A stretch of DNA of 64,000 nucleotides from Turneriella sp. (GCA_965279515.1 CBDIID010000003.1:2761097-2825096), one strand, 5' to 3'; counted from the first letter of the stretch, positions 21,809-33,933 are shown. Notes: generated by a model from the letters alone, not told the origin. A program made the numbers and translations.

Positions 21809-24175
21809 TTAAACCCCCGCAATAAGCATTAAGATTTCTTCGTTTGTGGCAGGTAGGTTGATGTGTGCTGGTTTACCAGTCATATATGATAAGGCATTCT
21901 TCACCGCGCAGAAAACTGCCAGGCCGAGCATCAGCGGTGGCTCGGCGACAGCCTTCGACGAACGGATGTTGAAGTCGTGCAAGGTATTCTCGAAAAATTC
22001 CAGCCGGAAATCGTCGGGGATATCCTGAATGTTCGGGATCTTATACGTCGTCGGCGAATGCGAGAGCAAGGCGCCTTTCTCATTGTATTTCAGCTCTTCT
22101 GCCGTCACCCAACCGATGCCTTGCACCAGGCCACCGATTAGCTGCCCACGATCGATGCCAGGGTTGATCGCCTTGCCAATATCCATAAGCACATCAAGGC
22201 GGTCGATCGTGAGCGCTCCGGTAAAACGGTCGATCGAAATCTCGGCCACGCAGGCACCGTTGGTAAAATAATAGAACGGGCTGCCCTTGCCCGTTGCATA
22301 ATCGAAGTCGATGCCCGGCGTGGCATAGAAGCCACGCTCACCCATCGAAATGCGTTCACGCCACGCCTTTTGTGTAAGTTCGGCGAAGGTGATACTTTGT
22401 CCCCCCTCCGCCTTACCGGGCACCTCCCCCCGCCTGCGGGGGGAGGACGGGAGGGGGGACACGCCCACTATTCCATCACAAAACTCGATTTTATCAGGAG
22501 TAGTCGAAAACAGCTTCGCCGCAAATTCGGTAAGCCGCCCGCGGATCTTTTGGCAAGCCACAGCCGCCGCATTGCCGTTGAGGTCTGTACCCGCGGAAGC
22601 AGCCGTCGGCGCCGTGTTATTCGACTTCTCGCTCGATGTTGCCATCACACGCACATCTTCATAACGCACACCTAACTCGTCGGCGACGATCTGCTGCACC
22701 TTCGTGTAGAGGCCCTGCCCCATTTCCGTGCCACCGGTTGAAACCTGCACGGTGCCGTCGGTGTAGACGTTGACCAGGGCATTACCCTGGTTCAGAAATT
22801 TCGTGGTGAATGAAATGCCGAATTTGACACCGGTAAGGGCGAGACCTTTGATTTGCTCCCTTCCCCCAGACTTGGGGGAAGGGCCGGGGTTAGGGGCGAG
22901 GGCGGCAAAATTATGGTTATCAATTTCTTTACGTCTTTCGGCATAATTCGAACTTGCATAAAGCTGATCAAACAACTCGGGCAAGACATTATTTTTTACG
23001 TGCTGCCCGTAGTAGGTTACGGCATTCTGTCCCTGATAAAGATTTCGTTTGCGTACTCCGAGCGCATCGATCCCTAGCTCGACGGCGATATCTTCCAGAA
23101 TATTCTCGATAGCCGCTACCCCCTGCGGTCCGCCAAAGCCACGGAACGCAGTGTTGGATGGATAATTCGTACGGCAGATGGTTCCCGTGGCGCGCAGGTT
23201 GGGAATGTCATAGCAGTTATCGGTATGGAAAAGAGTGCGTGAGATAATCGAAGTCGAAAGGTCTGCCGTGCAACCGCCGTCGGAAAAATAATCGATCGCA
23301 AGTGCAGTAACCCGGCCCTCTGCGGTAAATCCCACTTCGTAAAAAGATTTCACCGGGTGGCGTTTGCCCGTCACCATCATGTCGGTGTCTTTGTCGAACT
23401 GGCAGCGCGCCGGCCGGCGTGTCTTCGCTGCCACAATACCCGCCATCAGCGCGGGCATCACCGCTTGCGTCTCTTTTCCCCCGAAGCCGCCGCCCATGCG
23501 CTTGCAGATACAGATGACATCGCTGTGCTTGAGGCCCAGAACTTCGGCGACTACCTTCTGTACTTCGGTGGTATTCTGCGTCGAGGAATGCACGACAAGT
23601 TCGCGGCCCTCGCCCGGCACAGCATACGCGGCCTGCGACTCAAGATAAAACTGTTCCTGGCCACCGGTAAAGAATTCACCTTTCAAGCTGCGTTCTGCCG
23701 TTTTCAGCGCGGCTTCAACATCACCCTGTTCCATCTTGATGGTCTTGTCTATGAAGAGTTTTTTTTCGCGCGCCTCGTCGATCGAGAGCACGGCGGGCAA
23801 CTCCTTCAGCTCAAGCTTCACGGCTTTTTTGGCGAGATTTACCAGGTCGCGCGTCGGCGCCGCTACAACAACAATGGGCTCACCCAAATAATGCGCGTGT
23901 TTTTCCGCTAAGAAAACTTCATCTTTGATAATCGGGCCAAAGAGGTTGATGCCTTCGATATCCTTATGAGTGAATACAAACGCTCCGGGAATTTCACTGA
24001 CCCCGCTGGTATCGACCCTGAGGATTTCACTATGCGCAAATCTACTGCCCACGAAGTCGACGATGAGCTCGCCGGGTAACTGCGGCATATCATCGATATA
24101 CGGCGCCGCGCCCTGCACATGGCCAATAGCCGATTCGTGCGGGTGTGAAACTCCGACTGCGCCCGTCGCCGTCAT
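21809..24175 (-). CDS. xdhB: Xanthine dehydrogenase molybdopterin-binding subunit
   Basis: PHESAIGHVQG, GGQEQFYLE, RMGGGFGGKETQ, AFRGFGGPQG, GTEMGQGL, PTAASAGTDLNG, SKAVAEPP. Confidence 0.95.
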   Translation of the reverse strand: MTATGAVGVSHPHESAIGHVQGAAPYIDDMPQLPGELIVDFVGSRFAHSEILRVDTSGVSEIPGAFVFTHKDIEGINLFGPIIKDEVFLAEKHAHYLGEPIVVVAAPTRDLVNLAKKAVKLELKELPAVLSIDEAREKKLFIDKTIKMEQGDVEAALKTAERSLKGEFFTGGQEQFYLESQAAYAVPGEGRELVVHSSTQNTTEVQKVVAEVLGLKHSDVICICKRMGGGFGGKETQAVMPALMAGIVAAKTRRPARCQFDKDTDMMVTGKRHPVKSFYEVGFTAEGRVTALAIDYFSDGGCTADLSTSIISRTLFHTDNCYDIPNLRATGTICRTNYPSNTAFRGFGGPQGVAAIENILEDIAVELGIDALGVRKRNLYQGQNAVTYYGQHVKNNVLPELFDQLYASSNYAERRKEIDNHNFAALAPNPGPSPKSGGREQIKGLALTGVKFGISFTTKFLNQGNALVNVYTDGTVQVSTGGTEMGQGLYTKVQQIVADELGVRYEDVRVMATSSEKSNNTAPTAASAGTDLNGNAAAVACQKIRGRLTEFAAKLFSTTPDKIEFCDGIVGVSPLPSSPRRRGEVPGKAEGGQSITFAELTQKAWRERISMGERGFYATPGIDFDYATGKGSPFYYFTNGACVAEISIDRFTGALTIDRLDVLMDIGKAINPGIDRGQLIGGLVQGIGWVTAEELKYNEKGALLSHSPTTYKIPNIQDIPDDFRLEFFENTLHDFNIRSSKAVAEPPLMLGLAVFCAVKNALSYMTGKPAHINLPATNEEILMLIAGV
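22399..22460. repeat. Nested GC-rich palindrome (family A) inserted in frame in xdhB
   Basis: Outer stem GTCCCCCCTCC/GGAGGGGGGAC; inner stem CCTCCCCCCGC/GCGGGGGGAGG; translated as VSPLPSSPRRRGEVPGKAEGGQ. Confidence 0.8.
22858..22897. repeat. GC-rich palindrome (family B) inserted in frame in xdhB
   Basis: 11-bp stem CCCTTCCCCCA-gact-TGGGGGAAGGG plus ccggggttaggggc tail; translated as APNPGPSPKSGGRE. Confidence 0.7.
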
Positions 24176-24567
24176 GTGATTCTCCCGACTGCCTTCAGAT
24201 AGGCAATCGTGGTTCCGAAAATAAGACCAGCCACAGCGGTTAAAGGTGCAATTCTCAGCAGGCGGGGAAACCGCGTCGCCGCGCCGCGATAAACACGAAC
24301 CGATAAGAACAGAATCAACCCCAAACCACAGATGCAGAAAATCCCGAGACCCAGTGTGACATAGTCTCCCGGAAGTTGTGGCTGAAGCAGTCCGGTAAGG
24401 CGGCGGTACGCTGTGACCGCGACACCGCCGAGGATTATACCCAGGGTGGGTGGCAAAAAGATCAAAACCGTCATCAGCCTGGGTTCCAGAAGATCCATCA
24501 CCCGCCGCCGGCGCTCCGCCTTTTGTTCGGCGCGCTTTATCGTTTCATTGCCTGCGCCGATTTCCAT
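24172..24567 (-). CDS. Small hypothetical membrane protein (about 3 TM) between xdhA and xdhB
   Basis: Starts 2 nt after the xdhA stop; its TGA overlaps the xdhB ATG; three hydrophobic stretches. Confidence 0.6.
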   Translation of the reverse strand: MEIGAGNETIKRAEQKAERRRRVMDLLEPRLMTVLIFLPPTLGIILGGVAVTAYRRLTGLLQPQLPGDYVTLGLGIFCICGLGLILFLSVRVYRGAATRFPRLLRIAPLTAVAGLIFGTTIAYLKAVGRIT

Positions 24568-24569
24568 AC

Positions 24570-26021
24570 TTAGCCCGCCTTAACACTCGCCGCATTTACG
24601 GTTTCAAAATGAAATTTCCGGAACAGGTTACGGATCAGAATCTTTCGGAAATCCGCCGAACCCCGCACATCGCTCTGCGGTTGCACTTCTGACATCGCAG
24701 ATTCACCGGCTTTGCGAAACCCTTCTTCTGAAAGTTCAGTACCCATCAAGAGCTTCTCCGTATTGCTGAGGCGCAGAATGGTCGCCGCAACGCCACCCGC
24801 AGCCAGTTGCGCACCGGCAATTTTAGATCCGGCCATTTGCAGGTGGATGGCCAACGTCACGGTTGAAATATCGAGATCACGGCGCTTCGATACTTTGTAG
24901 AGCTTGAACAAACTGCCCGGCTTGGGTAACGGTACGATAACTTTCGTCAAAAGTTCATCGGGCTTCAGGTCGAATTTTCTATAACCCGTGTAAAAACTAT
25001 GGATGTCAATTTCACGCGAGCCCGTAGCCGAGGTGACGACCAGGCGCGCACCCAATGCATAAAGGCACGGCAACGAATCGGCGATCGGCGAAGCGTTGAT
25101 GATATTGCCGCCAATGGTAGCGGCGTTTCTGATCTGCTCTGCGGCAAAAATCTTGAGGATGCCATGCAGTTCAGGCAATTCGGTTTTTGTGACAGCCAGC
25201 ACGTCAGACCAGTTCGCCGCCGCGCCGATTTCGAGCGCATCACCTTTTTTTTGTATCGCGGCGATTTCATGCAGGTGCGCGATAAACAGCGCCTGCGTAA
25301 TCACCGACCGTCCTTTGTTATGCTGCACGCCGAGGTCAGTGGCGCCCGCTACGATTTTTAATTGCGGCATCGCGGCGCGTAGCTTCAGCGCTTCAGCCAG
25401 ATTCGCGGGTTTAAAGAAGGTTTGTCCCGAAGTCGTTCCGATCTTCAGGGATTGGCCGGTGGTTTTCGCAAACTCGGTTTCCATCGTTTTGCGGTCAAAA
25501 CGTTCGCTGATTTTGACCTGCTGCGCCGAATTCAGCGCCAAACCGGCTTTGACGATTGCCTCATAACCGGTGCAACGGCAGAGATTCCCAGCGAGTTTGT
25601 CTTTGATGGTAACAGTGGTATGCGACTTTTCTTTTTCAGCCATGTCGGCGAGCGCCATAACAAAGCCAGGCGTACAGAAGCCACATTGCGAACCGAAACA
25701 CTCGACCATCGCCTGTTGCGCGGGGTGCAGCGTACCGTTTTCTGCAAGGGCTTCGACGGTGATGACATGACACGAATCGAGCTGGAATAAAAACTGGATG
25801 CAGGAATCGACAATGCGGTATTCGAGTTTGCCGACGGGGTTCATCCAACCGAGAATGATCGTGCAGGCGCCGCAGTCACCTTCACTGCAAACAATCTTGG
25901 TGCCCGTCATGGCTCTTTTTACCCTGAGCCAGGTCGAGAGCGTCAGAAATGTATCTTCGCCCGAAATCTCAACACGTTCATGGTTCAGATAGAAGACAAT
26001 CTTTTCGCGGGTAACAGCCAT
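24570..26021 (-). CDS. xdhA: Xanthine dehydrogenase small subunit (2x[2Fe-2S] plus FAD)
   Basis: CSEGDCGAC, QCGFCTPG, GNLCRCTGY, AGATDLG, IRNAATIGGNIINASPIAD, SKRRDLDIS. Confidence 0.95.
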   Translation of the reverse strand: MAVTREKIVFYLNHERVEISGEDTFLTLSTWLRVKRAMTGTKIVCSEGDCGACTIILGWMNPVGKLEYRIVDSCIQFLFQLDSCHVITVEALAENGTLHPAQQAMVECFGSQCGFCTPGFVMALADMAEKEKSHTTVTIKDKLAGNLCRCTGYEAIVKAGLALNSAQQVKISERFDRKTMETEFAKTTGQSLKIGTTSGQTFFKPANLAEALKLRAAMPQLKIVAGATDLGVQHNKGRSVITQALFIAHLHEIAAIQKKGDALEIGAAANWSDVLAVTKTELPELHGILKIFAAEQIRNAATIGGNIINASPIADSLPCLYALGARLVVTSATGSREIDIHSFYTGYRKFDLKPDELLTKVIVPLPKPGSLFKLYKVSKRRDLDISTVTLAIHLQMAGSKIAGAQLAAGGVAATILRLSNTEKLLMGTELSEEGFRKAGESAMSEVQPQSDVRGSADFRKILIRNLFRKFHFETVNAASVKAG

Positions 26022-26138
26022 GGCAATACAGGTTCGCTTAAGTCAGCATCTTTTGTGCCAAGCGGATGGCAGTAAAGCAGAAAAGCTTTGGGAGAAAAAA
26101 GTACTCTTGCTTTCGGCGGATTATGCCGATCGACAAGC

Positions 26139-26831
26139 ATGATGTCCCGATTCACCGCCTTCGCCCTCGTTTTCGCTGGCCTCTTTGCCCTCGCTGCAGG
26201 TATCACCGCGATCGATAGCGCGTATAAAAACGCCCCTGATACCGAGGTAAACCTCGAAGACCAGGCGCTCGATTCTCAGATTAAAGAAGAGATCGTAAAA
26301 ATTGAAAAACTGCATACGCTGCGTAACCTGAAATCCATCCACATGGCCCCCCAGCAAACTAAAGTACGCATGAGCAGCAACGGCGAATGCCTCGAAGTCG
26401 ATGCGCACGCAGAAAACCATGAAATGGTCCGTATCAAATCTGCACCGATTGACTACAAAGTGCAGAATATTCAGATCTGCTTCACGGGCGATAAAGTGTC
26501 ACGCATCGAATCGGCTTTCACGACCATTTCACTGCGCAAGCAAGAAACCGCAAATAATAGTTTTGTCCATAAAGACCCGGCCAAGGTGGGGGCCAATGAT
26601 ATTGTACTCACGACGGCAATGAACCAGCGACCGAAGCCGCCGCTACGGGTCGGCGACCTCGAAAACACCAAGGTTAATCCGTTGCGCTTGTCGTTCAAGC
26701 GCGATTATTATTTACCACACCTGCGCAACACAACCTACATTTTACAGCTCACGTACGATTGGCATAAGCGCGAAGCGGTGAAAACAAACGAAAAAACCGT
26801 AAACACCTATATCAACGCGACTACTCCGTAG
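26139..26831 (+). CDS. Hypothetical exported protein
   Basis: N-terminal hydrophobic signal; no recognised domain. Confidence 0.6.
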   Translation: MMSRFTAFALVFAGLFALAAGITAIDSAYKNAPDTEVNLEDQALDSQIKEEIVKIEKLHTLRNLKSIHMAPQQTKVRMSSNGECLEVDAHAENHEMVRIKSAPIDYKVQNIQICFTGDKVSRIESAFTTISLRKQETANNSFVHKDPAKVGANDIVLTTAMNQRPKPPLRVGDLENTKVNPLRLSFKRDYYLPHLRNTTYILQLTYDWHKREAVKTNEKTVNTYINATTP

Positions 26832-27486
26832 CGCCGGCCTTTTTTAGAATTTTACGGATTTCGTCCGTGTCCTTGCTGGGCGTGCCATAACCCTGGCCGA
26901 TAATGCCCAGCGGGGATTGCCCCTGTTTATTGCGGGTCGTTGCCTGCGCGCCGGCCTTCACCAGCAATTTCACGACGATAAGATCGTCGCGCCGCACCGC
27001 ATGGTGCAGCGCGGTTAAACCTTCACTATCCGCCTTATTCACATCAGCGCCGGATTTCAAAAGTAATGCGACAACCTTCGCGACGGCAGCCTTGCGTTTT
27101 TCCAGGGCTTTTGGCCCATCCTTTTTCATTTCTTCTTTGAGACCGGGAGCAGTCCTGCCGCCGCCTGACTTGCGTATATGATGCATATCGAGGCCGCAGA
27201 CCATGAGCGCTGTTTTACCCTCGGCGTCCGTTGTATTAACATCGGCGCCCTTTTTCACCAACGCGGCAACCGCTTCCGGGAAATTACGCTCCGCCGCGTA
27301 CATCAACGGTGTGCCGGCATCGGCAGAGCGCTGGTTGAGTTGTGCCGCGTTCGCGGACAGGGCTTCGTTAACCTCTTTGATATCGCCCGAAGCAATGGCG
27401 GCCATCAGTTTTTGGTTGGGTTCTTCGCCATGTAGCGCCGTCAGCGCCAAGGCGACGAACAAGGTTGGATAAAAAATATTCCGCAT
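26821..27486 (-). CDS. Exported ankyrin-repeat protein
   Basis: Signal peptide; GTPLMYAA, GKTALM, GLTALHHA, GADVN repeats. Confidence 0.9.
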   Translation of the reverse strand: MRNIFYPTLFVALALTALHGEEPNQKLMAAIASGDIKEVNEALSANAAQLNQRSADAGTPLMYAAERNFPEAVAALVKKGADVNTTDAEGKTALMVCGLDMHHIRKSGGGRTAPGLKEEMKKDGPKALEKRKAAVAKVVALLLKSGADVNKADSEGLTALHHAVRRDDLIVVKLLVKAGAQATTRNKQGQSPLGIIGQGYGTPSKDTDEIRKILKKAGATE

Positions 27487-27528
27487 AGCGGCCAGCACCG
27501 CTCTCAAACTTCCGCCGGGAATTCTTTT

Positions 27529-28818
27529 TTAAGCTTTGGGGCTGAAAACCCGGACGGGTTTCTCGCGTCCCTTGACGGGAACCTCGCCTTTTTCGACAAA
27601 CTGAAAAGATTCCCCCGCAGCAACGCGCACTTCTTCAGAAACGAGAATCTCGCTCGCAAACTGCTTGTTGAGCTGCTCGATGCGCGAAGCCACATTGATG
27701 ACATCGCCAATCACGGTGTATTCCTTACGTTTGTCAGAGCCGACATTGCCCGTCAAAGCCTCGCCGCTGTGAATGCCGATACCGATACCCAGGGCTGCAA
27801 CAGTGCCAGCTTCGGTGCGTTTTTTAAGCTCATCGGAAATCACCAGCGCCGTTTTCACGGCGTTGATGGCATGGCTGTTATCGTCGAGCGGCGCGCCAAA
27901 CACGGCGAGAAACCCATCACCCAGGAACTTATTGATGATACCCGAATGCGCATGCACGATATCGATCATAAATTCGAGCAATTTGTTGAGCTCAGTATAA
28001 ACCTCGTGCGCGCTGCGACTCTCCGAAAATGTCGTAAAACTGCGAATATCGAGAAACAGCGCGGTAATATGGCGGATCTCCGCCAGGTTCGTGTCACGCG
28101 ACGTGAGCAGTTTCTGCACGACTTCCTGCGAAACATGTTCGCCGAAGAGCGCCTCAATTTCTTGTTTCTTTCGCTGTGATTCGATAACATGGAGGACGCG
28201 CTGTCTGAGCTGAGACGCGACGAAACCTGCGATCGCCGCGCCGCCCAGAATAAAGAACGCTTTCACAAAGTGGTTGGGCATCGTAAAAAGTAGCGACGGG
28301 TATGGGGGCTGGTTCGTTCCCATAATATGATAAACAAAAGCGATATAGGTAATCGCGGCGCTCAGCCCCGTCGTCAGGCAAATCCAGGGATTCAGCCGCA
28401 GCACCGATAAGATCACGAAGAAAGCGTACGCGAAAAGCGGTGGCATAGCCAGCCCTGCTGCCAGATCACCCTGGGGCGCGAAGAGCCAGAGCGCAAAGCT
28501 CGGTACCGTGCCTTCCATCGCAGCGTTGAAAAGACGTCCCGGTAGGGGCAGCGTTTTCTTTTTACGGGCCAGGCGCGAGATCACGGCGAAGGCGAGTGCA
28601 TAAAACACAGTCACACCTCCAAAAAAAGCCGGCAAAAGAGCTACGTTGACGCGGCCACGGAAAAGTTCATTATAACGCTCCGCGGCAACCAGGTAAAAAC
28701 CGAGGCTGAGCACAAACATCGAAGCAAAACTGATGACGATAATCTTAATGCGCAGGACTTCGGAAGTGGCAATTTCTTCTGAGAGTGCGTCTAAAAGTTC
28801 GGTATTCGGGTGGGCCAT
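27529..28818 (-). CDS. Membrane-bound class III adenylate/guanylate cyclase
   Basis: Multiple TM helices followed by FLDIRSFT, NKFLGDGFLAVFG, GIGIHSG, YTVIGDVINVASRIE. Confidence 0.9.
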   Translation of the reverse strand: MAHPNTELLDALSEEIATSEVLRIKIIVISFASMFVLSLGFYLVAAERYNELFRGRVNVALLPAFFGGVTVFYALAFAVISRLARKKKTLPLPGRLFNAAMEGTVPSFALWLFAPQGDLAAGLAMPPLFAYAFFVILSVLRLNPWICLTTGLSAAITYIAFVYHIMGTNQPPYPSLLFTMPNHFVKAFFILGGAAIAGFVASQLRQRVLHVIESQRKKQEIEALFGEHVSQEVVQKLLTSRDTNLAEIRHITALFLDIRSFTTFSESRSAHEVYTELNKLLEFMIDIVHAHSGIINKFLGDGFLAVFGAPLDDNSHAINAVKTALVISDELKKRTEAGTVAALGIGIGIHSGEALTGNVGSDKRKEYTVIGDVINVASRIEQLNKQFASEILVSEEVRVAAGESFQFVEKGEVPVKGREKPVRVFSPKA

Positions 28819-28873
28819 AACGAAGCCTCAAAACGAATCTCAACCTGTAAATTCTCTTTGCCGAACTGAATAG

Positions 28874-29554
28874 CTATTCAGGAATCCGAATACTAAAATC
28901 GTCAAACGCAAAAGAGATTGGAGTGCCTGGCGTGGCGGCAAAACCATAGACACCTGAATAGCCCGTCACATAAGTTGAATCCAGAACAGTTAATGAATCC
29001 GATACGGCACCGGCTAACTCGCAGCTTAGCTGGTTATATTCCAGTTTAAAGGTTATTAAATATTGATTTCCTACAATAACGGTAATCGGCGATGAAGAAA
29101 CGGACAAATCCGATCGAAGACCTGCACTGTTTTTGAAAATCGTAAGCCTTTTGGGATTTGTAGTCCCGTCAATTCCGCAGAAATATCCATCAGATGGCGC
29201 AGACTTTAACTTTGATCTCGCAACCAGCATAAGCGAATGGTTCTGCGCGGGAAGAGTGGTTAAGGCCGTAAGCCGAGTGGCATGAAACGATTTCCTTTGA
29301 TCTACTTTGCGTGAACAAGCTACAAAAGTATAGTTTCCCCCGGAAAAATTAACTACAGCATTTTGGTTTATGATTGATGCTTGAAAATAATTAACCCCCG
29401 AAACCTGCCAATTTTCACCCAAACTTGAAGAATCGCTCCTGTTGAAATCATCATTGCAGAATTCAGGATTGGATTCCCTTTCCATGTTTAATTGCGTACA
29501 GCACGTAAGAAGCACCAAAATAATTGACCCATAACGCAGTCGAAATCGCAGCAT
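28874..29554 (-). CDS. Hypothetical lipoprotein (concanavalin/LamG-like beta-sandwich), paralog 2
   Basis: LLTCC lipobox; FCNDDFNRSDSSSLGENW motif shared with 29556-30251. Confidence 0.65.
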   Translation of the reverse strand: MLRFRLRYGSIILVLLTCCTQLNMERESNPEFCNDDFNRSDSSSLGENWQVSGVNYFQASIINQNAVVNFSGGNYTFVACSRKVDQRKSFHATRLTALTTLPAQNHSLMLVARSKLKSAPSDGYFCGIDGTTNPKRLTIFKNSAGLRSDLSVSSSPITVIVGNQYLITFKLEYNQLSCELAGAVSDSLTVLDSTYVTGYSGVYGFAATPGTPISFAFDDFSIRIPE

Positions 29555-29555
29555 A

Positions 29556-30251
29556 TTATTGTGCTACCTCCGACTTAAAACTATCAAAGAGTACCGTAAT
29601 CGGCCCGCCTGTCCCTTCGCCGAAGAATCCCACTTGGCCGACCTGAAGGGCGCTATCCGTGGTCCGTAAAGCAACCTGACTCGAGCCGATATTTACGCTA
29701 CACAAAAGCGATGCCCCATCCATCGCGAAAATAATAGATGCTGTTGTTCCTGCAGGAATACTGGAGATTGAATTATCTACCGCTAACTGTATAACGTTTC
29801 CTTGACTAACATTAAACAGAGCAATTTTATTTTGATAGAAGCCACATAAATAAAGGTCTGTGATCAAATTCTTCACGCGCGCCACCAAGGCGAATTTGTG
29901 GTTTGCCAAAGCTGTCATTTGAGGCTGAATTCTAAGCGATATTTTAGATTTGGTATGCTCTATGCGATTCTTACAAGCGAGGACAATATACCTAAGCGTC
30001 AGATCAAGTTTCCCCATTTGGTTGCTGATGCTAACTGTCGGTGGCGCCGAGTAGGGAAATAAGCCTGTAGCCTCCCATTTATCTCCAAGGTCCGAAGAAT
30101 CTGGTCGATTAAACTCATCAGAGCATAAATCGTTATTAGAGGCTTCAAGTAAGTCTACTTGCGCGCAGTTTATGAACACTCCCAAGAGGACAAAAAGGGA
30201 AAAAATAGATCCCGAAACAAAGCGATTAACCGACACCCCCTTAAAAACCAT
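29556..30251 (-). CDS. Hypothetical lipoprotein (concanavalin/LamG-like beta-sandwich), paralog 1
   Basis: FINC lipobox; LCSDEFNRPDSSDLGDKW...GQVGFF...FDSFK. Confidence 0.65.
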   Translation of the reverse strand: MVFKGVSVNRFVSGSIFSLFVLLGVFINCAQVDLLEASNNDLCSDEFNRPDSSDLGDKWEATGLFPYSAPPTVSISNQMGKLDLTLRYIVLACKNRIEHTKSKISLRIQPQMTALANHKFALVARVKNLITDLYLCGFYQNKIALFNVSQGNVIQLAVDNSISSIPAGTTASIIFAMDGASLLCSVNIGSSQVALRTTDSALQVGQVGFFGEGTGGPITVLFDSFKSEVAQ

Positions 30252-31311
30252 AACCCATACCCATTAAAACTTGCAGGGTGTTTAAATCTGCGCCCTGGAA
30301 TAGGATATGTGAGTAACTTCCCATCACTGATAGCGAAAGAGTTCGCCAGAGAATATAACGTAACTCCAGATTTGCGCGCAGTTCAATGTCCCGCGATTGC
30401 AATATGGCATTGTCAAAATCCCGCTGCAGCTCGGAAATTGCAGCACCCACGAGTGCCGAGAAATGGATGGTAAACGTTCGAAAAGCTGAATAGCCGAAAT
30501 CCACGCCACCCAATATAGAAACGGGTTGAATACGTAAGCCAGGAAAGATACCTGCTTTATTCTGGTATTTAACGTAAGAGCCTGCAATTACAGGTGAAAA
30601 ATGGAATCTACCCGACTGAAATGCCGAATAACCAATCTGACCATAAATTCCGAATGCGCCTTTGTAAATTTCGCTGAATTGTCCCTGCAGTGGCGCCGAG
30701 TAGAATCCGTAGACACCAACGTGAAGTTCGTTTGTTTTTTGATAGCGAATAATTTCTTCGCGTGGGAGCGGAGGTAAGGCTGTTTTCATTTTCATACTCA
30801 TCTTATTGGAAAGCATATTAATGCCCTCAAATAATTTCAGGCTGGTTACCTGCATGACAATATTTTCCGTCACTTTTACCCGTTGGGATTGAACGTCGAT
30901 AGCTTGAGCCTGAACCTGGGCAACTCCCTGGATCGTCAGAAAATTACCAATCAGCACAATATCAGCCTCAGCTTTCTTTCCCAAACCAACTGCCGTTTCA
31001 ATTTCGTATAACTTAGCGGCCGAAATTTGCAGATCTTGAGCGAGTTTGCGACCTTTTTGTGGATCAAGGATATCAAAGGAGCCCGTTTCCTCCAAAGGTT
31101 TTACAAAGGAATCGGGAATTGTTGGTGTTAGGAAATCACTCGCCACATCTTTTTTCTGGTTAACGAAATCCAGAATCAACACACGGCGCTTAATCATTTC
31201 CTTAGCACCGATAGTGGAAGAATACACCAGGAACAAAAGGAAGAATAAGCAATAATTTTTCACTGGATTAGCACCGGAAAAATGAACGTCACGTAAATAG
31301 ACTTTCACCAA
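30241..31311 (-). CDS. Predicted OMP: TolB-N/CsgG-like domain plus beta-barrel
   Basis: Signal; RRVLILDFVN...ADIVLIGNF; barrel ending MGMGYGF. Confidence 0.65.
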   Translation of the reverse strand: MVKVYLRDVHFSGANPVKNYCLFFLLFLVYSSTIGAKEMIKRRVLILDFVNQKKDVASDFLTPTIPDSFVKPLEETGSFDILDPQKGRKLAQDLQISAAKLYEIETAVGLGKKAEADIVLIGNFLTIQGVAQVQAQAIDVQSQRVKVTENIVMQVTSLKLFEGINMLSNKMSMKMKTALPPLPREEIIRYQKTNELHVGVYGFYSAPLQGQFSEIYKGAFGIYGQIGYSAFQSGRFHFSPVIAGSYVKYQNKAGIFPGLRIQPVSILGGVDFGYSAFRTFTIHFSALVGAAISELQRDFDNAILQSRDIELRANLELRYILWRTLSLSVMGSYSHILFQGADLNTLQVLMGMGYGF

Positions 31312-31391
31312 TAGCTGCCAGGAATTCCGGTGTTTTTCCTCGGGCTCAAAATCCTTGACCCGGCATAACGCGGCACACCAACGCTACCATT

Positions 31392-32579
31392 ATGGAATCT
31401 TACCTTCTCGACTGGTTACAACTCGGCGTGCGCTGGCTGCACATGATCGCCGGCATCGCCTGGATCGGCGCCTCGTTCTATTTCGTCTGGCTGAATAATA
31501 ACGTCCGCCGGCCCGTTGAGCCCAATGCTCCCGATGGCGAAAAAGATGGCGAGCTGCATGCCATCCACGGCGGCGGGTTTTACCGCGTGCAGCGCTATGC
31601 GCTCGCGCCGAAAGAACTTCCCCATGACCTGCATTGGTTTAAATGGGAAGCGTATACGACATGGCTTTCGGGCATCAGCCTTCTGGCCTTAGTCTATTAC
31701 CTGAATCCCCAGGTCTATCTCGTCGACACCGCCATTGCAAAAATCGGCTCGGGTGCCGCCATCGGCATCGGCGTGGGATTCATACTTGCGGGGTGGTTTG
31801 TTTACGATTTGCTGCAACGCTCGCCCCTGGGCAAAAGCCAGCTCGCGTTTGGGATTGTTTTCTTCGCTCTCGTCATGGGCGCGACCTGGTTTATCTGCCA
31901 CACCTTCGGCGGCCGCGCCGCCTACCTGCATGTCGGCGCGATGCTAGGCACGATCATGGTCGCGAACGTGTTCTTTGTCATCATTCCCTCGCAGCGCGAA
32001 CTCGTGCACGCCAAAGAGCAGGGCCGCCTGCCCGAAAAGAAAATGGCCGAAATGGCCAAGAACCGCTCGCTGCATAACAACTACCTGACGCTGCCTGTGC
32101 TCTTTATCATGATCTCGAATCATTACCCGATGACGTTCTCGCATGAATATAACTGGGCGATTCTGGGCGCGATCTCGATGGGTGGGGCGCTTATCCGCCA
32201 CTGGTTCAACCTGCGCGGCCAAGGGAAGTCCGCACCATACCTGTGGGTCATCAGTGCGGCCGTCTTCATTGCCGTGATCTGGTTCACTGCCCCCAAAAAA
32301 CAAGCCGCTGGGGCGCCCGTCGCATTCAGGGAAGTCGATGCCCTCATGGGTAAACACTGCCGGGGATGCCACTCGGAGAAACCGACAGACGCGATTTTCA
32401 AGATCGCCCCGAACGGCGTGAAATACGATACCGCTCAGCAGATCGCCGTAATGGCCTCTAAGATCAAACAAAGGGCGGTTGAAACGCCTTCAATGCCCTT
32501 TGGAAACAAGACAAATATGACCCCCGAAGAGCGGGTGCTGCTCGGACGCTGGATCGATCAGGGCGCGAAGGTTGAGTAA
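31392..32579 (+). CDS. puuD: Urate hydroxylase PuuD (COG3748 membrane domain plus cytochrome c)
   Basis: RWLHMIAGIAWIGASFYF, HGGGFY, LHWFKWEAYTTWLSG, RSLHNNYLTLPVLFIMISNHY, C-terminal CRGCH. Confidence 0.9.
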   Translation: MESYLLDWLQLGVRWLHMIAGIAWIGASFYFVWLNNNVRRPVEPNAPDGEKDGELHAIHGGGFYRVQRYALAPKELPHDLHWFKWEAYTTWLSGISLLALVYYLNPQVYLVDTAIAKIGSGAAIGIGVGFILAGWFVYDLLQRSPLGKSQLAFGIVFFALVMGATWFICHTFGGRAAYLHVGAMLGTIMVANVFFVIIPSQRELVHAKEQGRLPEKKMAEMAKNRSLHNNYLTLPVLFIMISNHYPMTFSHEYNWAILGAISMGGALIRHWFNLRGQGKSAPYLWVISAAVFIAVIWFTAPKKQAAGAPVAFREVDALMGKHCRGCHSEKPTDAIFKIAPNGVKYDTAQQIAVMASKIKQRAVETPSMPFGNKTNMTPEERVLLGRWIDQGAKVE

Positions 32580-33933
32580 GACTCTGCTTAAGAGCCGGCG
32601 GGCCGTCATTGGCAATGAAGTCAAACCCGCGGCGGTCATGATCGACGGCGAAATGATTACCGATATTCTCCCCTATGACGCGGCTTTAGGGTCGACGGGT
32701 ATCCATATCATCGACTACGGCGACCTCGCTCTCATGCCCGGCGTCGTCGACACGCACGTGCACATCAACCAACCGGGCCGCACCGAGTGGGAGGGCTTTC
32801 AGACGGCCACCGCCGCCGCCGCAAAAGGCGGCATCACTACCCTCGTCGACATGCCGCTCAACTGCGACCCGGTCACCACAACGCGTGCGGCGCTCGAGGC
32901 AAAACTCAAATCGTGTGCGGGACTCTTGCATGTCGATTGCGGTTTTTATGGCGGCGTGATTCCCGGCAACCTGAACGACCTCGAACCGCTGATCGATGCC
33001 GGCGTGCTCGGCTTCAAGAGTTTTCTTATCCATTCGGGCATCCACGAGTTTCCGCACTGCGGCGAAGCCGAACTGCGCGCGGCGATCCCGATTCTCAAAA
33101 AAGGCGGAGTCCCCTACCTCATGCATGCGGAGTTGGAGTCCCCCTCCGCCTCCGGCGCCTCCCCCGTAAACGGGGGAGGCCGGATGGGGGACAATCGTTC
33201 GTATGCTACCTACCTAGCCTCGCGCCCGCGCCGCTGGGAAAATGATGCCATCGAACTTATGGCCCGCCTCGCGGATGAGACCAACGCGCACCTGCATGTC
33301 GTGCATCTGTCGTCGTCGGATGCCCTCACGACGCTGGAAGGTGCGCGCAAAAAAAATATCCCGCTGAGCGTCGAGACCTGCCATCATTACCTGACGTATT
33401 GCTCCGAAGAGATTCCTGACGGCCGTACCGAATTCAAATGCGCGCCGCCGATACGCGAAAGAGAGAACCGCGAAAAACTCTGGGCGGCGCTGAAAAACGG
33501 CACGATTGATTTTGCCGTGTCAGACCATTCGCCGTGCACGCCTGAACTCAAGGCCGCCGAATCGGGCGATTTTATGAAAGCGTGGGGCGGCATCGCCGGA
33601 TTGCAATTCAGCCTCTCTGTCTTCCACACGGGGGCATCCGCCCGTGGTCTTTCGCTGGCGCAGATCAGTCATTTTCTCTCGGCGGCGCCGGCGAAATTTG
33701 TCGGCCTGAAGAACAAGGGCGCCATCGCGCCAGGCATGGACGCCGATCTCATTGTTTTCGATTCAGGAAAAAAATTCCGCGTCGAGCGCAGCGACATAGA
33801 ACACCGCCACGATGTTTCACCCTATATCGGTATGGAGCTTTTAGGGCAGGTCAAAGAAACCTGGCTGCGCGGCGTCTGTGTACATAAAGAGGGAAAATCC
33901 GTCGGCCCGGCGGGCAGGCCAATCTTACGCTAA
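32572..33933 (+). CDS. allB: Allantoinase
   Basis: PGVVDTHVHINQPGRTEWEGF, GGITTLVDMPLN, GFKSFL, ETCHHYL, FKCAPPIR, SDHSPC, AWGGI. Confidence 0.92.
   Translation: MSKTLLKSRRAVIGNEVKPAAVMIDGEMITDILPYDAALGSTGIHIIDYGDLALMPGVVDTHVHINQPGRTEWEGFQTATAAAAKGGITTLVDMPLNCDPVTTTRAALEAKLKSCAGLLHVDCGFYGGVIPGNLNDLEPLIDAGVLGFKSFLIHSGIHEFPHCGEAELRAAIPILKKGGVPYLMHAELESPSASGASPVNGGGRMGDNRSYATYLASRPRRWENDAIELMARLADETNAHLHVVHLSSSDALTTLEGARKKNIPLSVETCHHYLTYCSEEIPDGRTEFKCAPPIRERENREKLWAALKNGTIDFAVSDHSPCTPELKAAESGDFMKAWGGIAGLQFSLSVFHTGASARGLSLAQISHFLSAAPAKFVGLKNKGAIAPGMDADLIVFDSGKKFRVERSDIEHRHDVSPYIGMELLGQVKETWLRGVCVHKEGKSVGPAGRPILR
33138..33192. repeat. Nested GC-rich palindrome (family A) inserted in frame in allB
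   Basis: GTCCCCCTCCG...GCCTCCCCCGT-aa-ACGGGGGAGGC-CGGATGGGGGAC; same family as 22399-22460 but read on the opposite strand (SPSASGASPVNGGGRMGD). Confidence 0.8.

Follow-up and report, generated by a model that had tools for sequence, protein, structure and literature searches.

A 64,000-nucleotide stretch of the Turneriella sp. genome (GCA_965279515.1 CBDIID010000003.1:2761097-2825096; hereafter the window) carries a G/C-rich palindromic repeat in frame within two genes of purine catabolism, xdhB, for the molybdopterin-binding subunit of xanthine dehydrogenase, and allB, for allantoinase. Both copies belong by their design to the BoxC/PIT/triplex-motif (TM) class of bacterial repeats, and both lie in protein loops. 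Across the genus, the same codon positions have been occupied repeatedly, and they coincide with places where other lineages hold palindromes native to the gene whose arms evolve by compensatory change. Why would the same codons be filled again and again? We consider it probable, at roughly 0.6, that a selfish or neutral repeat of the TM class, translated with its host gene, targets or replaces DNA that already forms a hairpin.

In-frame elements in xdhB and allB

The xdhB gene (21809..24175, minus strand) is a 788-aa open reading frame (ORF) whose product scores above the curated TIGR02965 cut-off (859.9 bits against 849.5), and allB (32572..33933, plus strand) is a 453-aa ORF whose product scores above the curated cut-off of TIGR03178 (allantoinase; 544 bits). 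Neither ORF contains a stop codon. The repeat copy in xdhB, at a position that we call site B (22398..22461, no strand assigned; residues about 572-593), reads VSPLPSSPRRRGEVPGKAEGGQ on the minus strand, and the window sequence at 22399-22460 is GTCCCCCCTCCGCCTTACCGGGCACCTCCCCCCGCCTGCGGGGGGAGGACGGGAGGGGGGAC. Its outer 12-bp stem (22398-22409 with 22450-22461) encloses a side hairpin (22410-22421) and a main hairpin (22423-22446; CCTCCCCCC-gcctgc-GGGGGGAGG), whose G arm is mirrored by the G block GGAGGGGGG. The single element in allB (33138..33192, no strand assigned; residues 189-206; window sequence GTCCCCCTCCGCCTCCGGCGCCTCCCCCGTAAACGGGGGAGGCCGGATGGGGGAC) reads SPSASGASPVNGGGRMGD on the plus strand and consists of an outer stem (33138-33144 with 33186-33192), a side hairpin (33148-33156) and a main hairpin (33157-33180; GCCTCCCCC-gtaaac-GGGGGAGGC). 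On the plus strand the two copies point in one direction, and they are therefore read in opposite orientations, on the minus strand in xdhB and on the plus strand in allB. Folded as single strands with Watson-Crick pairs only, both form a three-way junction ("Y") whose outer stem has 7-12 bp, main hairpin 10 bp and side hairpin 3-4 bp, with energies of -44 to -54 kcal/mol and z = -5 to -6 relative to shuffled sequences. A preliminary description of this DNA had placed a shared nested-hairpin motif at these two positions and had each copy adding an in-frame peptide between conserved enzyme motifs; the sequences are there as described, and our translations match its peptides.

Comparison with orthologs bears out its further proposal that the peptides are insertions. 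The site-B loop of XdhB has 24 residues outside Turneriella (with two exceptions, of 28 and 30), 21-43 within the Turneriella clade and 39 in this genome. The AllB loop, from YLMHAEL to YLASRP, spans 28 residues both in some close relatives and in the distant homologs where it is shortest, 28-62 in the clade and 38 here; since part of the loop gave way to the element, the net gain is about 10 residues and not 18. A second loop of XdhB, site A, has 20 residues outside Turneriella (one exception), 20-52 in the clade and 33 here. It holds a third in-frame hairpin element (22858..22897, CCCTTCCCCC-agactt-GGGGGAAGGG with a C-rich leader; residues about 426-440) from a different sub-family, whose peptide, APNPGPSPKSGGREQ, and hairpin recur in frame in another gene (C3:2295285). 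The inserts of XdhB and AllB, and that of Dxr described below, are missing from orthologs or distant homologs.

In AlphaFold2 models, where the preliminary description had anticipated surface loops, the inserts map to low-confidence coil in both enzymes. The mean predicted local distance difference test score (pLDDT) is 89 for AllB, with residues 195-203 below 50 and in coil, and 82 for XdhB, in which sites A and B are both low-confidence coil and site B bridges two short strands; pLDDT is below 50 over part of each insert and about 50-60 overall. Coil and low pLDDT suggest that the inserts are exposed at the surface. In P0197, a protein from another phylum, an unrelated repeat-like insert (FRVQGSESNSELNPEPRTLNP) lies in the site-A loop of XdhB, and this loop therefore tolerates insertions in general.

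The allB copy is identical in contigs assembled independently from three sequencing runs, which rules out an assembly artefact. Repeats of this kind fragment short-read assemblies. In run X5, a drinking-water metagenome, the contig of a close relative (3 differences in 218 nt) ends at window position 33117, about 20 nt short of the allB element, and the xdhB contig of the compared genome G009 breaks within the site-B element.

A repeat family of the genus Turneriella

The host genome is that of a Turneriella (Leptospirales), and its chromosome holds 78 perfect G/C-rich hairpins with the pyrimidine arm on the left versus 15 with the purine arm on the left. The 78 hairpins make up 69 loci, with the loop classes TATAA, AAGTCT, GCATGC and GTAAAC. 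The core CCTCCCC N3-8 GGGGAGG is present in 50 copies here and in 0-29 copies in each of 13 other Turneriella genomes, and it is essentially absent from 47 genomes of other genera (family, order and class). The reversed control pattern gives 0 copies in this genome and 0 in the compared genomes, except for one genome with two.

The expectation that further copies would be found in the genome thus held, with 60 of the 69 loci intergenic and nine in frame within long ORFs. The in-gene loci lie in xdhB (two), allB, dxr, dsbD and the genes for a DegT-type aminotransferase, a PP-loop (TilS-like) protein, a methyltransferase and a TM/TPR protein. Pfam domains span the insert in DegT, Dxr and DsbD, and the insert adjoins a domain in the other two genes with a Pfam match. 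Where different genes read one element in one frame, similar peptides result: SPSAxGxSPxxGGG is common to AllB and the methyltransferase, and APNPxPSPKSGGRE to XdhB site A and the TM/TPR protein. A role specific to purine catabolism is unsupported, as dxr, dsbD, degT, tilS and the methyltransferase gene also hold copies. Perfect palindromes outside the G/C-rich family, with arms of 12-14 bp, also occur in long ORFs (C3:1115687-1115716, 1963976-1964007, 2716303-2716328 and 3347890-3347917).

The exact 22-nt core CCTCCCCCGCWTGCGGGGGAGG is found in at least 120 contigs from Alpha-, Beta- and Gammaproteobacteria, Chloroflexi, Acidobacteria, Actinobacteria and others. These cross-phylum copies share the outer blocks (CCCCCACCC ... 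GGGAGGGGG), and several share the side hairpin (GCCGAAGGC); at their 65-70% G+C, open-frame scoring of coding location is uninformative. Rfam, searched with the 13-kb region, yielded nothing at E <= 1. Literature searches by sequence word returned unrelated eukaryotic papers only, and those on Turneriella repeats returned nothing relevant.

Repeated occupation of the same codons

Hairpins of at least 11 bp in xdhB, surveyed in seven Turneriella species, are confined to sites A and B, with none elsewhere in about 5,400 codons. Such hairpins are present in 13 of the 14 site instances, and the xdhB outgroup has none. Sites without the multi-copy element hold a near-perfect palindrome, one arm of which consists of conserved host codons: CGTGTGCTCAGCGAAGGGCAT-gaa-ATGCCCTTCGCTGAGCTCACG, whose right arm encodes MPFAELT; AATCCAATCTGGTGACCGCC-gaa-GGCGGCCACCAGATTGGATT; and CCTTAAGGGGGGC-gca-GCCCCCCTTAAAG, anchored on LKG. 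At site A of T. parva xdhB (locus L004), a full GTCCCCCC...GGGGGGAC element stands beside the remains of an older C-rich element in a 35-residue in-frame insert.

The allB loop of eight lineages holds a native palindrome with arms of 17-22 bp (CCTGT...GGCAGC-nnn-GCTGCC...ACAGG). It is single-copy in each genome, which rules out this "type (i)" occupant as a multi-copy element. The alignment of the eight lineages contains 22 pairs, with 92% of the cells paired and 10 of the 22 pairs changed on both sides; 0 of 500 shuffles reach this level, and slid controls give 0-2 of these doubly changed pairs. G·U occurs in just two cells. Because wobble pairs are nearly absent, the pattern points to a constraint at the level of DNA, or to copying, rather than to a selected RNA helix. 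A palindromic repeat of another type ("SGQA"; CTTCGACAGGCTCAGGGCGAC...) occurs in frame at two places in allB of G001, a sister species (locus L015), with codons for PSTGSGQAH and DALRQAQGDVTLSSSKGD, and this type is also found at the same allB loop in an unrelated clade (P0025, P0027).

The same arrangement extends to genes outside purine catabolism. In dxr, two species have a palindrome of 17 bp whose anchors are the conserved LL and KV codons, with one compensatory change separating the two; three species carry multi-copy elements at this site, and other genera have neither palindrome nor element. Native arms reach into the conserved codons M(S/P)FAEL, LKG and LL/KV. In dsbD, this genome and its sister species hold different sub-families at the same codon; among relatives, one bears another element, and the loop of one is about as long but lacks the G/C-rich element. 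At all five sites compared, relatives hold another palindrome at the same position, and at xdhB, allB and dxr these include single-copy native palindromes. It follows that the element probably replaced earlier occupants and did not enter virgin sequence. The initial view of an element that adds a new loop is therefore right about the gain and too simple about what preceded it.

Gene trees allow part of this history to be read. In the AllB tree, built with the loop masked, the element appears in this genome's clade (P0002, P0003, P0004) and in G009, nested among lineages with native palindromes. The two occurrences agree in position, orientation and frame and have identical boundaries, and a second palindrome type (LRQAQGD...SSSKGD) is likewise present in both clades. 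Over about 36 lineages the loop has held at least eight kinds of insert. Truly empty alleles, found in close relatives, have no hairpin, and the filled allele exchanges seven loop codons for 17. At site B of xdhB, the element points the same way here as in the T. parva lineage, with native-palindrome lineages lying between the two on the tree. The T. parva copy has lost the side hairpin but still has a hairpin. In the closest relatives (P0123, G001) the homologous element is flipped, which fits an inversion in place between its arms. The repeat appears to have replaced native palindromes more than once, separately.

Could the clustering be mere survivorship? An ordinary miniature mobile element, comparable to the RPE of Rickettsia, would insert anywhere, selection would spare the in-frame copies in tolerant loops, and the palindromes nearby would be unrelated older insertions. 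A multi-copy and mostly intergenic family is what such an element would leave behind, the modelled copies in XdhB and AllB do lie in low-confidence coil, and the unrelated repeat of P0197 marks site A as a generally tolerant loop. However, about 70 copies per 4.9 Mb make repeated hits on the same codon across lineages very unlikely without targeting, and such hits are seen at the two xdhB sites, allB, dxr and dsbD, some with identical boundaries, while no other loop of the 788-residue XdhB has ever been hit. Nor are the native palindromes older mobile insertions, because the allB occupant that was tested is single-copy and in those of xdhB and dxr one arm coincides with conserved codons of the host. 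We therefore regard survivorship as an unlikely account of the clustering.

Relationship to known repeats

TM repeats are G/C-rich intrastrand-triplex motif repeats, for example the TMECO repeat of E. coli, that are known from more than 260 genomes and include "palindromic" forms (Holder et al. 2015, PMC4666352). That study describes them as unconnected with mobile elements and as lacking promoter and terminator activity. The E. coli motif is reported to be always intergenic and is associated with local instability, and palindromic TMs show partial deletions that leave a hairpin (PMC4666352). The BoxC/PIT/TM class and the Turneriella repeat share a pyrimidine block, a short loop, a complementary purine block, a short spacer and a mirror-repeat purine block, as well as two-sided tails in the palindromic forms, many copies, a distribution over many phyla and the lack of a known transposase. 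Of the 78 hairpins, 56 have a mirror-repeat tail no more than 30 nt away, compared with 1 of 78 random places, and the xdhB site-B and allB copies have mirror tails on both sides.

Since the block design agrees and the strict TMECO consensus is unmatched, we place the repeat, on design, in the wider G/C-rich class and not in TMECO. Judged in the same way, its form is the palindromic TM type, 55-62 bp long, with a side hairpin added, and the T. parva xdhB copy without the side hairpin is a case of the hairpin-keeping partial deletion. Several features set it apart from TMECO: its blocks are CCTCCCCC/GGGGGAGG, one spacer contains the extra side hairpin, and nine of the 69 loci lie in frame in genes whereas the E. 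coli motif is reported only from intergenic DNA. The hot-spot turnover with native palindromes seen in Turneriella is unmentioned in PMC4666352.

The preliminary description had likened the elements to RPE, which are repeats of about 100-150 bp from Rickettsia with a conserved family peptide (Ogata et al. 2000, 2002, as summarized in PMC10969869). The likeness holds for behavior and fails for identity. According to that account, RPE are, like the Turneriella repeat, multi-copy palindromes in frame in unrelated housekeeping or metabolic genes, with a peptide that fits the protein fold. A multi-copy palindrome in frame within ORFs is what the nine in-gene loci present, and in XdhB and AllB it adds a loop modelled as low-confidence coil, in line with what is described for RPE. 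The Turneriella repeat differs in its length of 55-62 bp, G/C-rich composition, triplex-motif design, unrelated sequence and free-living spirochaete host. No RPE-type NCBIfam family was among the XdhB hits or among the best 25 AllB hits. The description of RPE consulted (PMC10969869) includes no replacement of an earlier palindrome at one and the same codon. As for miniature inverted-repeat transposable elements, the outer stem could pass for terminal inverted repeats, and no target-site duplication is seen where the element adjoins coding sequence, host loop sequence having been replaced there.

Candidate movers

Which enzyme might move such a repeat? The suggestion to look for a linked RAYT or DUF559-type gene led to a DUF559 gene flanked by related modules and to a RAYT linked to a different palindrome family. 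REP and REPIN sequences are short hairpin repeats, mainly intergenic, for which a repeat-flanked single-copy enzyme gene, that of the RAYT (Y1 HUH) transposase, is the proposed mover (PMC3116915). The only RAYT-like Y1 transposase gene of this genome lies outside the window (C3:2616152-2616472) and is flanked by perfect palindromes of another family (..GGGAATTAATTCCC..; locus L023, 1445-1482, 1873-1904 and 2538-2577). Unlike the situation in REP/REPIN systems, these flanking palindromes are not the repeat in question, and the presence of the gene across the genus does not track repeat counts, which together rule out RAYT as the mover. Palindromes of the GGGAATTAATTCCC type are also found within long ORFs at C3:2617189 and C3:3638604.

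The layout of an enzyme gene between its own repeats resembles the DUF559 cassettes of Turneriella. DUF559 genes, encoding Vsr-like PD-(D/E)xK nucleases, are present in 11 of 14 Turneriella genomes, against two clear hits and two weak partial ones in 47 other relatives. In this genome the gene (C3:1445171-1445479; 139-aa ORF; bracketed region C3:1444900-1445570) lies between two direct copies of AACCACCCCGCCCCTGCGGGGCACCCCTCCGGAGGAGGGG, a module whose C block, side hairpin and main hairpin are built as in the in-gene elements; the direct repeat that contains the module is about 60 nt long. C-run hairpin modules lie within about 200 bp of about 9 of the 17 full-length DUF559 genes of the genus, mostly on both sides. 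Genes of G002, G003, G007 and G009 are similarly bracketed.

If the repeats were non-autonomous partners of these cassettes, the nuclease would cut folded DNA and repair would copy the repeat, or an inverted flank, into the break. Such cut-and-copy would account both for targeting and for the native palindromes, and it would be compatible with a selfish or neutral repeat that enters hairpin-forming DNA. The near restriction of the gene to the genus and its bracketing by similarly built modules speak for a partnership. In T. parva, however, 29 core hairpins occur in a genome that lacks DUF559, G013 shows the reverse (the gene and 0 core hairpins), and about half of the genes are without such a hairpin in their vicinity; neither a nuclease activity nor a cut site or copying event is known, and our literature search turned up no paper linking DUF559 to repeats. 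We consider such a partnership rather improbable, and DUF559 would be a candidate mover only. A broader proposal, in which palindromes created from host codons and maintained by copying between arms are swapped hairpin for hairpin for TM repeats by one hairpin-directed cut-and-copy mechanism, possibly run by DUF559, is somewhat less doubtful and remains tentative.

Proposed origin and turnover of the inserts

We propose that the repeats are selfish or neutral DNA with no enzyme function attached, and that in-gene copies would persist only when they keep the frame, are free of stops and fall in a tolerant loop. Their arrival would be non-random, with repeats entering and overwriting DNA that already forms a hairpin. 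The locus-specific palindromes may start as short inverted repeats lying between conserved codons and lengthen as adjacent codons are copied in inverted form, and copying from arm to arm may keep them perfect, as could happen through template switching or fold-back repair where a fork stalls or the DNA breaks. A loop that bears a palindrome would become a lasting hot spot in which elements flip, are trimmed and are swapped for members of the multi-copy families.

For the native palindromes, inverted codon copying followed by DNA-level correction between arms is probably the best explanation. Quasipalindrome correction by template switching or arm-to-arm conversion is a mutational hot-spot mechanism in laboratory E. 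coli. It would perfect imperfect inverted repeats and transfer changes from one arm to the other, fitting compensatory change without G·U intermediates. We know of no report in which it maintains palindromes of 17-22 bp in protein loops across species.

Several observations weigh against insertion of a TM-class repeat into hairpin-forming DNA. This genome and G009 share 12 identical bases to the left of the allB element, and short-patch recombination between lineages is therefore possible instead of independent insertion. Neither a target-site duplication nor a clean empty-to-filled junction was found. Some close relatives have allB loops without a hairpin, and a hairpin is therefore not indispensable at the site. 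A strong tolerant-loop filter could, without targeting, give part of the clustering. The E. coli TMECO consensus, CCCTCNCCC N3-6 GGGNGAGGG N3 GGGNGAGGG, has 0 matches on both chromosome strands. The core hairpins of T. parva coexist with the lack of a DUF559 gene. Finally, it is the intact frames that suggest translation of the inserts as disordered Pro/Ser/Gly-rich loops.

The least probable alternative, that the hairpin itself is functional, as a signal in mRNA for pausing, stability or processing, or in DNA as a site of protein binding or recombination, and that any stable hairpin would serve, so that palindromes are interchangeable under selection, would explain the persistence of hairpins at the same sites despite sequence turnover, including the 13 occupied xdhB instances and the strong allB covariation, but it is quite unlikely given the two G·U cells, atypical of a selected RNA helix, the hairpin-free close relatives at the allB site and several at the dxr site, the missing hairpins in all non-Turneriella homologs, the want of a common pathway among xdhB, allB, dxr, dsbD, degT, tilS and the methyltransferase gene, and the blank Rfam search.

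Significance

In-frame palindromic repeats are already known, as RPE (PMC10969869), and so is the TM repeat class (PMC4666352). We did not find described a TM class carried within genes, turnover at fixed codons, or single-copy palindromes that stay perfect across species.

What, then, does the Turneriella case add? BoxC/PIT/TM repeats are widespread in bacteria and, to our knowledge, have no known function or mover. Here they are found in frame in enzymes, apparently as loops, and a history of gain, flip, trimming and replacement at these sites can be read on a gene tree. That history yields a testable target rule, that repeats go where DNA already folds, and a candidate enzyme, DUF559. Single-copy palindromes of which one arm consists of conserved codons, and which stay perfect from species to species, suggest a copying process at the level of DNA that shapes protein loops. 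The case is thus of interest for repeat biology, for replication and repair, and for protein evolution. Hairpin-for-hairpin replacement, if true, would be the missing mobility mechanism of a class without a known mover since the 1990s, and it would give bacterial proteins a general route by which to gain and remodel loops.

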